NCBI RefSeq assembly: GCF_964213995.1
Contig: NC_135812.1
Location: 103,044,001-103,108,000, forward strand
Length of the DNA: 64,000 nt
Direction of reading: 5' to 3'
From: Mustelus asterias
Lineage: Eukaryota
The notes beneath the pieces were generated by a model. That model had not been told where the DNA came from and did not search any database. It saw only the letters and a program-made list of their open reading frames with translations. The position numbers and the translations under genes were made by a program. Shown here in pieces: positions 1,246 to 6,100 of the stretch; positions within the stretch are counted from its first letter, which is position 1; every line of letters starts with the position of its first letter.

Positions 1246-1282
1246 GTGGATGCTAGCAGGGATGCCATGAATAAAGAAGACA

Positions 1283-2235
1283 AACAAGGGACACGGTGGA
1301 CAGAATACCCTTCTTCATCCAGTACTTCCCTGGAGCAGAGAAACTACGACATCTTCAACATGTCATTGATGAAGACGAACATCTTGCCAAGGCCATCCCC
1401 ACACCCCCACTTCTTGCCTTCAAACAACCGAACAACCTCAAACAGACCATTGTCCGCAGCAAATTACCCAGTCTTCAGGAGAACAGTGACCACGACACCA
1501 CACAACCCTGCCACAGCAACCTCTGCAAGACTTGCCAGATCATCTCATGTGAGAACACCATCCACCAGGTACACAGGTACATACACTTGCAACTCGGCCA
1601 ACATTGTCTACCTGATACGCTGCAGGAAAGGATGTCCCGAGGCATGGTACATTGGGGAGACCATGCAGACGCTACGACAACGGATGAATGAACACTGCTC
1701 GACAATCACCAGGCAAATTTCTTCCTGTTGGGAACACTTCAGCGGTCACGGGCATTCGGCCTCTGATCTTCGGGGAAGCGTTCGCCAAGGCGGCCTTCAC
1801 GACACACGACAACGCAGAGTCGCTGAGCAGAGGCTGATAGCCAAGTTCCGCACACATGAGGACGGCCTCAACCAGGATCTTGGGTTCATGTCACACTATC
1901 TGTAACCCCCACGACTTGCCTGAGCTTGCAAAATCTCACTAACTGTCCTGTCTGGAGACAATACACATTTCTTTAACCTGTGCTTAACCCTCTCTCCACT
2001 CACAATGTCTGCACTTGATTACCTGTAAAGACTCGCATTCCAACCATTATTTTGTAAATTGAGTTTGTGTCTTTATATGCGCTGTTTGTGAACAGAACTC
2101 CCACTCACCTGACGAAGGAGCAGCGCTCCGAAAGCTAGTGGCTTGTGCTACCAAATAAACCTGTTGGGACTTTAACCTGGTGTTGTGAGACTTCTTACTG
2201 TGCTTTTACCCCAGTCCAATGCCGGCATCTCCACA
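1283..2235 (+). mobile_element. 5'-truncated Penelope-like retroelement with GIY-YIG endonuclease (family A)
   Basis: [53 protein letters not shown]; upstream frame LAFKQPNNLKQTIVRSKL; 18-bp TSD CCATGAATAAAGAAGACA at 1265-1282 and 2236-2253. Confidence 0.92.
2105..2141 (+). ncRNA. Minimal hammerhead-ribozyme motif in the PLE 3' repeat
   Basis: tcac-CTGACGA-A-GGAGC-agc-GCTCC-GAAA-GCT-A-gtgg; stem I TCAC/GTGG, palindromic AGCT in place of stem III. Confidence 0.7.
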
Positions 2236-2386
2236 CCATGAATAAAGAAGACATACAATCGGGCGACATCATGCCTATGGAGGACTCTTCCCGTTGACAG
2301 GGGATATTGACTGGGGACATTGCCCTCTTTTTAGGGACTGCACAAAAACTCTCCTTCATTGAGGGAAAGGTGTGTCAATTGGAGGT

Positions 2387-2540: not shown

Positions 2541-3186
2541 ATGGCGGCATCGACCTCCAGGCAGACCCCGACCCACTCCCGGACACTTTTCCTGGGAAGC
2601 GAGGGTGTCCCGCTCCGCTTCTACGTGAGGCCGGGGCCCACCAAGGCCTCGCTGTTTCCGCTGATTGTGCACGGCGGCGGGGTGATGTGCCGACACCGGG
2701 AATGGGGCGCCGTCCTGCTGACCGAGCTGGAGGAGACGGGGCCGCCGCCCAAGGGCTACACCACAGCCCGCTACGTGCTGGACTGCGTGGAGAAGAACGA
2801 GCAGCTGCCGCTAGAGGACTACGGTGGCCAGCGGGCCTGCCCGCCGCGGGCTGAGGTCCGGCAGGCCCAGCCAAGAGCCGGTAGGACGCAGTTCAGCAAG
2901 CTGGACGACGTCGCCATCTTGATGTACCTGCGGTCTCACGTTAAAGAGAGCGGGCGCTCGGTCCGCGGCACAGTCACCTGGCAGGAGATGGAGCGGATCC
3001 AGCTGACCGCCCACCCCTGGCAGTCCATGCGGAGCCGCTACTTGCGCTACCTCTGCGGCCGGGAGCACCTTTACCAACTCGACAGCCGCTCCGTCATCCC
3101 CACCGCCATCTTTCCCAAGTTGAACGGTCCGGAGGAGGCCAGCGCTTGGCCAGCTCCCAAACCGGAGGCGGCTCAATTGTGGAAAG
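2541..3186 (+). CDS. TERF2IP: TERF2IP exon 1 (BRCT and Myb)
   Basis: ATG at 2541 in a CpG-rich region; donor AAG|GTGAGG, phase 1. Confidence 0.9.
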
Positions 3187-6100
3187 GTGAGGCCTTCCTG
3201 CGCCAGGGGAAGGACGGCCGTTGGGTTGCCGGCGGCAAGTGAGCATGCGCCCGTCCGTGAATGCCCGTGCGCATGTGCGAGACCGTCAGCTGTCCGCATG
3301 CGCATTTGGACCCCCAAATGTATCGATGTTGTCCCTATCCTCTAAAGTTAAAAGTTTGTTTATTAGTCACGAGTAAAGTTTACATTAATACTGCAATGAT
3401 GTTACTGGGTAAAGGGTAGTTAGCTGAGGTGTTCTTGTCTATTTCTGACCAAAAGGTCCTTCAAGCACACCAGAATGATAGGGAGTGGGATAGCTTGATC
3501 TTGGTTTCGGACAAAGCACGGCACAACATCGAGGGCCGAAGGGCCTGTGCTGTGCTGTACTGTTCTATGTTCAAGCCGCCTGTCTTTTCATATGGTTTCA
3601 TTTTTCTTCTTCTTTAAGGTAGACCTGAAGAGAGAAAACGCAGGAAAATCTCAGCAGGTCTGGCAGCATCTGTAATCATAGAAACCCTACAGTACAGAAA
3701 GAGGCCATTTGGCCCATCGAGTCTGCACCGACCACAATCCCATCCAGGCCCTACCCCCATACCCCTACATATTTACCCACTAATCCCTCTAACCTACGCA
3801 TGCGCATGGGAGAGAAGAGCTGACATTTCGAGTCCAGATGACCCATTGTCCGAGACGTCAGCTTTTTTCTCTCCTTACAGATGCTGCCAGACCAGCTGAG
3901 ATTTTCCAGCATTTTCTCTTTTGGTTTCAGATTCCAGTATCTGCAGTAATTTGCTTTTATTTCTTGAGGTAGACCTGTCTTTTTTTACTCATTTACTGGT
4001 TGTGGGTGTCCAGCATTTCTTACTGTAAAGATATACGTTATAGATTGTTAGCAATATAAAATGTATTTATTAATATGGAAACATTTTGTAGAGGCTTGTA
4101 ATCTTGTAGCTGCAATTTATCATGACCATCAACCTAACCTACACACTTCTGGACTGAGGGTAGCACAGTGGTTAGCACTGGTCCCTCACAGCACCAGGGA
4201 CCTGGGTTCAAATCTGGCCTCTGGCCACCTATGTGGAGTCTGCACGTTCTCTCCATGTCTGTGTGGATTTCCTTTGGGTGCTCAAGTTTCCTCCCACAGT
4301 CCTAAGATGTATGGGTCAGGTTGATTAACCCTAGTATTGGGGGGATTATGTGTGGGGTTACAGGGCCTGGGTTTGTGTTTAGTGCAGATGATGGGCTGAA
4401 TGGCCTTTTTTGCATTGTAGGTATTCAATACAAGCTGACATAGACACTGGGAGAATGTGAAACTCAAGGCTGGAATTGAACCTGGGTCACTGGCAGCAGT
4501 GCTAACACAGTGAGAGCTTTGGCAACGCCGGGTTGGAGTCCAGCAGGTTTATTTGGTGGCGGATGCCGTTAGCTTTCGGAGCGCTGCTCCTTCGTCAGAT
4601 GGAGTGGAAATCTGACGGGGGAGCAGTGCTCCGAGGGCTGATGGCATTTGCTGCCAGGTGGGCCTGTTGGACTTTAACCTGGTGTTGAAACTCTTGCTGT
4701 GTTTACCCCAGTCCAATGCCGACATCTCCACAGCAATGTTAACAACCATTGTGCCATCTTGCCTCAGTCTCCTATATGTTTTCTACATGTCTTTAGACTG
4801 TTTTCTGCCTCAAGACTCTACCCCTTGAGGTGATTACTTAGTCCTAATTGGTCCCTTAAGCCAATTGACCCTCCTTTGCTGTTTTGCCCTTAGAGGGATA
4901 ATCACCAGTTACCCTCCCTAATAGCCCTTGAAGATGATGTGTTTCTGCAGTCCATCTATTGTAGATACACCCATAGTGCTCCTAGCGAGGGAGTCTATGA
5001 TATTCTAATAGTTTCAGTCTTGTGTTAATAATATGAAGGTGCAACTGCTAATAATTGGGTAAAGGGAATAAATAATGGGGAGGAGAGTGAGATGGATAAG
5101 AGACCAGAGCAATGCAAAGCTCGGAGATAAGTTGTGTCATGGGGCAGGAGGAGGTTATAGAGCTTAGAAAATAAACCCCTTCCACTTGATTAGAAGCACC
5201 CACTCTTACAGGACACCAGGGTGCCTTCTCACTGCTAAACAGCTATAAACCTAAACCTAAAGTGTGTCAAGATATGTTCTTTTAAGTGATTTTCCTACAG
5301 CATCCTTGCAGGTAGATTTTTCTGCACCTCTGACTTTGATTTCATTGAGAAGGTTTGAAAAGAAAATCGTATCTCCATTACTTCCTTCTCTATAGAATCC
5401 CTATAGTGTAGAAAGAGGCCATTCAGCCCATCAAGTCTGCACCAACTCTGACAGACCATCTTGCCCAAGTCTCTGTAACTCCAATAAGGGGCCAATCCAA
5501 CTAACCTGCACATCTTTGGAATGTGGGAGGAAACTGGCGCACCCGCAGGAAACCCACTTTGATATGGGGAGAGTGTAAACTCCACACAGTCACCCGAGAT
5601 CTGAATCGAACCCTGGTTCCTGGCACTGCAAGGTAACAGTGCTAACCATTGTTGCTGTGCTACCCAAGTCTATTGTAGTTCAGGCTTGACCATATAGTAG
5701 ACAGCCCAGTGCAGTGAATGCTGCATTGTCAGTGGTCTCATCCTTCACATAAGCAATGAGACAAAAGGACTGATGGCTCCTAGAGCCTCCTTGGCTCGTC
5801 ATCAACTCTGTTTTCCAATCCCATCTCCCATAATTTCTTTCTTAACCCCCACCCCAAAGAGACTATTGATCTTCGCCTTGAATATGCTCTGTGACTGATC
5901 ATGCCTAGTTCTCTAGTGAATCTTACAAAGATTCACAACTCTCTATCCCTTATTCTCAGTTCTAATTGGTAGATACTTGCGATTCTGACCTCCGATCCTT
6001 TGGAACATAAGAGCAGGAGTAGGCCATGTGACCCCCCCCCCCCCCCATCTGCTCCACCATTCATTTAGACATGGCTGACCTTCTACTTTAATGCTATTGT

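Follow-up and report, generated by a model that had tools for sequence, protein, structure and literature searches.

We identified a fold-back copy of a Penelope-like element at positions 4508–4732 of a 64,000-nucleotide window from the shark Mustelus asterias (the window being the whole stretch of DNA analysed, contig NC_135812.1, positions 103,044,001 to 103,108,000). The copy very probably derives from a hairpin RNA that was hyper-edited by ADAR and then reverse-transcribed into a new germline site. It carries 24 A-to-G changes on one strand, which fall in its paired arms with a marked bias by neighboring base, and it is bounded by a target-site duplication. At least 62 further loci in the genome bear similar one-strand scars. 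The copy and the related features around it are as follows.

563–786, no strand assigned: unedited sibling fold-back with another junction
1246–2240, plus strand: unedited, frameshifted 3′ part of a parent-type Penelope element (PF01541), with a GIY-YIG endonuclease remnant, a pLTR with hammerhead motif, and a tail
4494–4507, plus strand: left copy of the target-site duplication, 14 bp with 2 mismatches to the right copy, within a SINE
4508–4732, plus strand: non-autonomous fold-back Penelope-like insertion (inverted pLTR arm, loop, sense pLTR arm, tail) with 24 A-to-G changes, from the sibling alignment
4508–4600, plus strand: left arm, an antisense pLTR copy that ends at the inner end point and lacks the tail; 12 A-to-G changes at 4512–4568 and 0 in its 3′ 30 nt
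4566–4602, minus strand: minimal hammerhead motif, found by motif pattern (model after PMC4209133), with intact core and palindromic AGCU helix III; one helix-I pair is broken by the 4568 edit
4601–4609, plus strand: 9-nt loop, with the fold-back junction inside a 5-nt inverted microhomology that is also present in linear family copies
4610–4700, plus strand: right arm, sense pLTR; 11 A-to-G changes at 4618–4662 plus 4696, a private 3-nt deletion near 4687, and AATAAA at 4657–4662 changed to GGTGGG
4612–4636, plus strand: minimal hammerhead core, edited from CTGACGA to CTGACGG (4612–4618) and from GAAA to GAGG (4633–4636); no intact plus-strand core was matched
4701–4732, plus strand: unpaired Penelope tail, family positions 94–129, about 36 nt; 0 of 7 As edited
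4731–4744, plus strand: right copy of the target-site duplication

The Fold-Back Copy Carries One-Strand A-to-G Changes in Both Arms

The copy was compared with its 28 best genomic siblings (L002–L030, with the duplicate L029 left out), using the majority base of each alignment column as reference. Of its 28 substitutions, 24 were A-to-G, all on the plus strand and 12 in each arm; these are the same counts that the initial annotation of this DNA had given. They are located at 4512, 4521, 4522, 4527, 4530, 4535, 4536, 4543, 4558, 4561, 4562, and 4568 in the left arm and at 4618, 4619, 4635, 4636, 4640, 4653, 4657, 4658, 4660, 4661, 4662, and 4696 in the right arm. The same annotation had counted about three other substitutions and one 3-bp deletion; the private deletion near 4687 was recovered, but four other substitutions were found (T-to-C at 4517, C-to-T at 4627 and 4717, and G-to-A at 4722). 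The siblings together have 17 A-to-G changes, at most two in any one of them and 0.0096 per A, and the binomial probability of the count in the edited copy is 1.4 × 10−15 even at an assumed rate of 5% per A. One site, 4696, lies at the edge of the stem and is common to 3 of the 28 siblings; it may be an ordinary variant instead of an edit.

The changes depended on the preceding base, with 8/12 As edited after T, 11/23 after A, 4/17 after C, and 1/10 after G. The sole edited GA site is 4618, in agreement with the earlier reading that As after G were mostly spared. Among As followed by G, 4/16 were edited. Within the tail, none of the seven As at 4705–4732 was changed, which upholds the claim that the changes lie in the paired stem, with 4696 at its edge. 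When the two arms of the plus strand are set against each other, they form 70 Watson-Crick pairs, 23 G-T pairs, one A-C pair, and no other combination; the Gs therefore lack the compensating Cs proposed as the mark of a diverged subfamily. The plus strand still folds as one stem, with a computed folding energy of −162.5 kcal/mol compared to −106.4 kcal/mol for the minus strand. G-to-A changes, the type expected of APOBEC on the sense strand, occur once at the locus and make up 30 of the 907 substitutions pooled over edited loci, too few for an APOBEC signature. The AATAAA hexamer that reads GGTGGG in this copy is an editing hot spot across copies.

It had also been proposed that editing destroyed the plus-strand hammerhead core. 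Both core changes are present (CUGACGA to CUGACGG and GAAA to GAGG in the RNA), but, as read from the sequence, this core would already be locked inside the 97-column stem of the hairpin RNA, with the fold-back junction leaving helix I only 2 bp, and the core on the minus strand is intact.

The copy lies within a SINE. About 1.3 kb upstream of the copy is an exon that encodes BRCT and Rap1 Myb domains. This GC-rich exon, at 2541–3186 of the window, resembles the telomere gene RAP1/TERF2IP. A donor-like GT at 3187 suggests that the copy probably lies in the first intron of this gene, on the sense strand. The duplication that flanks it scores 8, exactly at the threshold, which is reached by 2 of 146 shuffled pairs.

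The Family Has the Layout of Penelope-Like Elements

The pLTR of the edited copy, which is itself non-coding, is common to the nearby frameshifted element with the GIY-YIG domain (PF01541 at 1246–1902, 24.7 bits with a cut-off of 22.6). Several features liken the family to known Penelope-like elements. It has an inverted 5′ pLTR and a tail of 30–40 nt at one end, the layout of the Penelope type, and members of the group typically have a truncated copy in inverted orientation at the 5′ end (PMC8557442). Its arms end at family position ~91–99 or at 127–129, two points about 36 nt apart, and the Penelope element of the anole has a tail and two start sites of reverse transcription (PMC11167929). 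A minimal hammerhead core was found in the pLTR by pattern, matching the minimal hammerhead with palindromic helix III described from pLTRs (PMC4209133). Helix I of this putative ribozyme varies in sequence between subfamilies with its pairing kept; a search of the 64-kb window with Rfam at the gathering threshold gave 0 matches.

The family is abundant, with 140,853 occurrences of an unedited arm 23-mer in the 3.68-Gb genome. At one locus (G000:C76:342050-352652), three Penelope ORF matches have equal scores and a spacing of 4,968 bases. This is a probable tandem array of full-length units, which would be useful for classification of the family.

At Least 62 Further Loci Carry Similar Scars

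Three probes with A-to-G doublets were used to search the genome for edited arms. The 24, 49, and 9 matches collapsed to 72 loci, all of which were fetched. Among these motif-selected loci, 63 had at least four one-way changes in an arm and the other nine were weak. A-to-G accounted for 766 of the 907 substitutions pooled over the edited strand, pattern-forced sites included. Further A-to-G changes were present inside the probe in 23/24 and 38/49 matches. In the controls, a CC-to-TT doublet had 2 matches, and a GG-to-AA doublet had 34, of which one showed a further change (this doublet lies at the pattern end, and truncations were counted). Hence, the raw doublet count (24 for A-to-G and 34 for GG-to-AA) does not discriminate, whereas the clustering does (23/24 compared to 1/34).

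Arms that were not selected by motif (n = 128) never had more than two changes. The edit patterns are private to their loci: with pairs of fewer than five edits together excluded, 2/894 and 0/1081 between-locus arm pairs were identical. No copy with at least three A-to-G changes was present among the first 100 of 256 matches to the loop motif, a figure that is biased low because one of the As that the motif requires unedited has become G in 8 of 17 edited arms. One of these 100 copies has six T-to-C changes, seemingly through alignment running into the flank. A capture-recapture estimate of about 52 loci edited on one strand in both arms (9 and 20, with an overlap of 3) is too thin to be trusted. 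The most heavily edited copy seen was L071, positions 560–1556 (G000:C7:37079367-37082389), where an antisense Penelope arm of about 1 kb that reaches into the ORF has 114 one-way changes relative to a natural reference copy.

Pooled Changes Bear Signatures Expected of ADAR

The neighbor bias was also evident in the pooled data, from which forced and variable sites were excluded. By 5′ neighbor, the edited As were 146/262 after T, 218/410 after A, 102/468 after C, and 26/208 after G (P = 9 × 10−17); this avoidance of a 5′ G matches the upstream-G depletion reported for hyper-edited RNA (PMC4365171). By 3′ neighbor, they were 148/345 (43%) for G, 163/420 (39%) for A, 68/184 (37%) for T, and 113/399 (28%) for C, a weak form of the 3′ G preference reported in the same work.

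Editing was concentrated on paired bases. Across 27 hairpins, 466/1041 paired As were edited compared to 5/168 unpaired As, and the difference held for As with a 5′ T or A alone (371/666 compared to 3/37). Position within the duplex also mattered: measured on whole stems, with antisense arms extending past the short reference, 31/145 As with less than 20 bp of duplex on their 3′ side were edited, compared to 564/880 beyond, and 97/186 near the 5′ duplex end. Such depletion fits the footprint described for ADAR2, which reaches beyond the edited A on its 3′ side (PMC9479739), and it explains the unedited stretches 4569–4617 and 4663–4695 of the copy. The host genome has 32 exon matches to the deaminase domain PF02137 at several multi-exon loci, which are candidates for ADAR1, ADAR2, ADAD, or ADAT1.

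The initial annotation had called for a test of whether clustered A-to-G changes occur in fold-back copies and paired positions only, and had named the same excess in linear copies as contrary evidence. The preference for paired positions is clear; fold-back structure is not universal, given that 12 loci have an edited sense arm alone. The best interpretation of these loci is that they represent fragments of hairpin RNAs, because the 128 unselected arms never exceed two changes.

Edit Patterns Label the Strand and the Molecule of Origin

The edited loci fall into three classes. The first contains 27 loci, including 4508–4732, with A-to-G changes on one physical strand in both arms. Since this class is defined by polarity and its loci were picked for A-to-G doublets, its excess of G-T over A-C pairs (529 compared to 19) is partly circular. 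The shared polarity implies that the whole hairpin was present in RNA. The antisense arm is on the 5′ side in 22 of the 27 loci. Some loci carry the tail on their 3′ arm and others on their 5′ arm, which makes transcription of the parents in both directions likely. In L037, L044, L051, L052, and L067, edited hairpins located inside larger composite Penelope arrays, the sense arm precedes the antisense arm in the 5′-to-3′ direction. Target-site duplications were detected at 27/29 siblings, 17/27 loci of this first class, and 4/4 mirror copies with A-to-G changes, compared to 2/146 for the null.

In the second class, which consists of six mirror loci, one arm has A-to-G and the other T-to-C changes, and the edits are identical in both arms at all six. 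Set beside this class, the one-strand polarity of 4508–4732 supports the earlier claim that both of its arms were on one RNA that was edited, reverse-transcribed, and inserted. The identical edits of the mirror arms indicate that both halves were copied from one edited template. Both ends can be placed in five of the mirror copies, and each of these has one end at the tail and its opposite end at the inner point; L069 is a palindrome of 322 columns with matching edited inner arms. We infer that a single RNA was copied from two starting points, with each target strand serving as a primer; the enzyme of the anole Penelope element cleaves and extends both target strands (PMC11167929). Alternatively, mirrored edits would also result from fold-back of the cDNA or from conversion between the arms. 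Two mirror copies on different chromosomes, L039 (1433–1619) and L047 (1464–1630), have the same four-edit pattern and are possibly offspring of one edited source.

The third class has one edited arm, sense at 12 loci and antisense at 18. At L053, an edited insert of 105 nt lies between 13-bp duplications with no partner arm, showing that editing preceded insertion there. Across the 12 sense-only loci, a target-site duplication was found at 0/12 by automatic search and at 2/12 by a looser search, and 9/12 have no inverted partner within the 3-kb locus. Partners or other inverted pieces are present near L031, L043, L045, and L133, and L043 and three others vary with the reference used. Among the antisense-edited loci, several retain an unedited sense partner in the insert (L063 at 1237–1817, L076, L116, L127, and L058). 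In these inserts, the antisense arm may have formed its duplex with another, upstream copy, or bound protein may have shielded the 3′ pLTR.

The fold-back junction of 4508–4732 recurs on several subfamily backgrounds; it is exact in 39 of 100 loop-motif copies, and the arms agree with each other in 18 of 23 scorable cases. We considered whether the 256 loop-motif matches are the offspring of a single master hairpin and rejected this idea, as the motif is also found in linear copies and the exact junction in only 39/100. Recurrence on different backgrounds with matching arms instead suggests that fold-backs are, for the most part, probably made afresh from linear RNA not exposed to ADAR.

Edited Words Are Present in Contigs from Two Studies

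We aligned Logan contigs from 5 of 16 sequencing runs to verify the G alleles. Among the runs listed, none was of RNA, which speaks neither for nor against expression of the family. These alignments are swamped by family copies, and contigs drop rare variants, so that gaps in them prove nothing. The right junction was confirmed by contig X1, which spans 4703–4930 with 0 differences. Exact G-bearing words were recovered for 4655–4687 in X1 and X3, possibly from the assembly's own sample, and for 4646–4687 in X4, from a second organism and a second study. The X4 organism has this exact 42-nt edited word and, at the site, a loose end before 4744 that resembles an empty SINE site. No aligned contig joined the edited positions to the unique flank of 4508–4732, and at 98% identity none covered 4480–4534 or 4623–4644. 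Sequencing data from two studies thus contain the edited words, but tie none of them to this locus through its flank.

Origin of the Edited Copy

We consider an ADAR-hyper-edited hairpin RNA that was reverse-transcribed into a new germline site to be by far the best explanation of the copy at 4508–4732. The path to it would have begun with two cDNAs copied off one RNA, starting at the tail end and about 36 nt inside, and joined at a short microhomology to give a fold-back. Once an older fold-back of this kind was transcribed, it would have yielded the hairpin RNA, as only re-transcribed fold-backs form hairpins; the copy is thus likely a second-round product. ADAR, which the pairing and neighbor biases point to as the enzyme, would then have hyper-edited this RNA from A to I before its insertion at 4508–4732, and reverse transcription, likely by the family's own enzyme, would have placed it in the germline. 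Among the points that sit uneasily with this explanation, the 18 loci edited in their antisense arm alone call for an extra assumption; an unedited partner accompanies that arm in some of these inserts. Moreover, the edits lie on the sense strand of the probable RAP1/TERF2IP-like intron, and this strand would also be predicted if the copy had been overwritten in place.

In such an event, the hairpin would have inserted unedited, been transcribed within the host intron and edited by ADAR, and its RNA or cDNA would have overwritten the locus by RNA-templated repair or gene conversion. In favor of this event, transcription of the locus would yield an ideal substrate, given that both arms are present; the edits lie on the sense strand of the exon upstream; and a genome search by the private 3-nt deletion found no parent copy, the sole match being the copy itself. 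Even so, overwriting in place accounts neither for the mirror copies, whose two arms carry the same edits (6/6), nor for the duplication-bounded insert at L053 without a partner, nor for the nine of 12 sense-only loci without an inverted partner in 3 kb, and the family's own route of reverse transcription is simpler. We therefore judge it very unlikely. Hypermutation by the reverse transcriptase under dNTP imbalance, or a DNA adenine deaminase acting on cDNA, would dispense with RNA editing altogether. Reverse transcription is in the path anyway, and editing is here read from DNA rather than from inosine in RNA. However, misincorporation should strike the unpaired template, yet unpaired As were almost untouched (5/168, against 466/1041 paired), and neither process predicts the avoidance of a 5′ G or the per-strand asymmetry at 3′ duplex ends; we give these processes a chance slimmer still.

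An equally slight chance attaches to an assembly or sequencing artifact in a hard-to-read hairpin, or to a diverged subfamily. The missing contig link between the G alleles and the flank speaks for an artifact. The lack of compensating Cs, the private patterns at 63 loci, and the exact G-bearing words in contigs from two studies and two organisms speak against these readings, and an error in reading hairpins cannot yield mirror or single-arm copies. On such pattern grounds, an artifact at 4508–4732 is unlikely.

The initial annotation had further suggested that ADAR restricts this element. In that case, edited RNAs would insert or re-transpose less and the edited copies would be rare survivors. 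Edited copies are indeed rare (63 found compared to 140,853 unedited 23-mers, and 0/100 among sampled loop-motif copies, the latter biased low), their patterns are mostly private, and both the plus-strand hammerhead and AATAAA are destroyed in 4508–4732. Rarity would count only relative to the number of hairpin-derived insertions, and linear RNA is probably the source of most fold-backs. Hammerhead mutants of the anole Penelope element insert unimpaired in vitro (PMC11167929), ADAR1 restricts L1 independently of editing (PMC5224506), and a single edited source may have given rise to both L039 and L047, which share a four-edit pattern. Insertion of edited copies did occur, in many cases with target-site duplications, and the minus-strand core remained intact. 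The evidence does not support the claim, and we view restriction as a doubtful possibility.

Relation to Known Systems

Passage of RNA edits into DNA through reverse transcription is already known. Processed pseudogenes edited by ADAR were made by L1 in cultured human cells (3 of 235 insertions; PMC11702581, bioRxiv 2024); as here, clustered changes of one type lie within RNA inverted repeats and were carried to DNA by a retrotransposon reverse transcriptase. Those insertions, as reported there, were induced, somatic, and from passenger mRNAs with Alu pairs, whereas ours are in a genome assembly, at 63 loci or more, and arise from a Penelope family's own fold-back. ADAR hyperediting from A to G, similarly fixed in DNA via reverse transcription, is cited for the avian retroviruses RAV-1 and avian leukosis virus in a review (PMC8586724), but from single clones of infectious viruses rather than a genome-wide record in a resident transposon family. 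In vertebrate genomes, LTR retrotransposons retain fixed APOBEC DNA edits, likewise strand-biased clustered changes left by a host deaminase in persisting retroelement copies (PMC4866542). Those are G-to-A changes from deamination of C in cDNA, independent of pairing, in contrast to A-to-G changes in paired RNA; the available text of that study filters for G-to-A and has 0 mentions of ADAR. We found no published report of fixed ADAR-edited Penelope copies in the literature searched, which largely excluded subscription journals.

The Penelope papers cited above (PMC8557442, PMC4209133, and PMC11167929) do not describe editing in the sections consulted, and state there that the formation of inverted structures is undefined. 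In the shark family, in contrast, the edits act as a label of strand and molecule for this process. With a private pattern and strand for each edited RNA, the long-open question of how Penelope inverted repeats and tails form becomes testable by sequence alone. For repeat annotators, they carry a warning that edited copies can resemble GC-rich subfamilies.

We see about even chances that the edits serve as a natural single-molecule barcode of the assembly of inverted Penelope insertions. Both nicked target strands would prime the same RNA, at the tail end and about 36 nt inside, and the cDNAs would join at microhomology; fold-backs would then be re-transcribed in either direction, hyper-edited, and re-inserted, forming a standing route from RNA editing to heritable mutation in this lineage. 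The edited Penelope copies provide a genome-wide, datable record of A-to-I editing entering DNA, the RNA counterpart of APOBEC fossils, and imply ADAR activity in the cells where Penelope inserts heritably.
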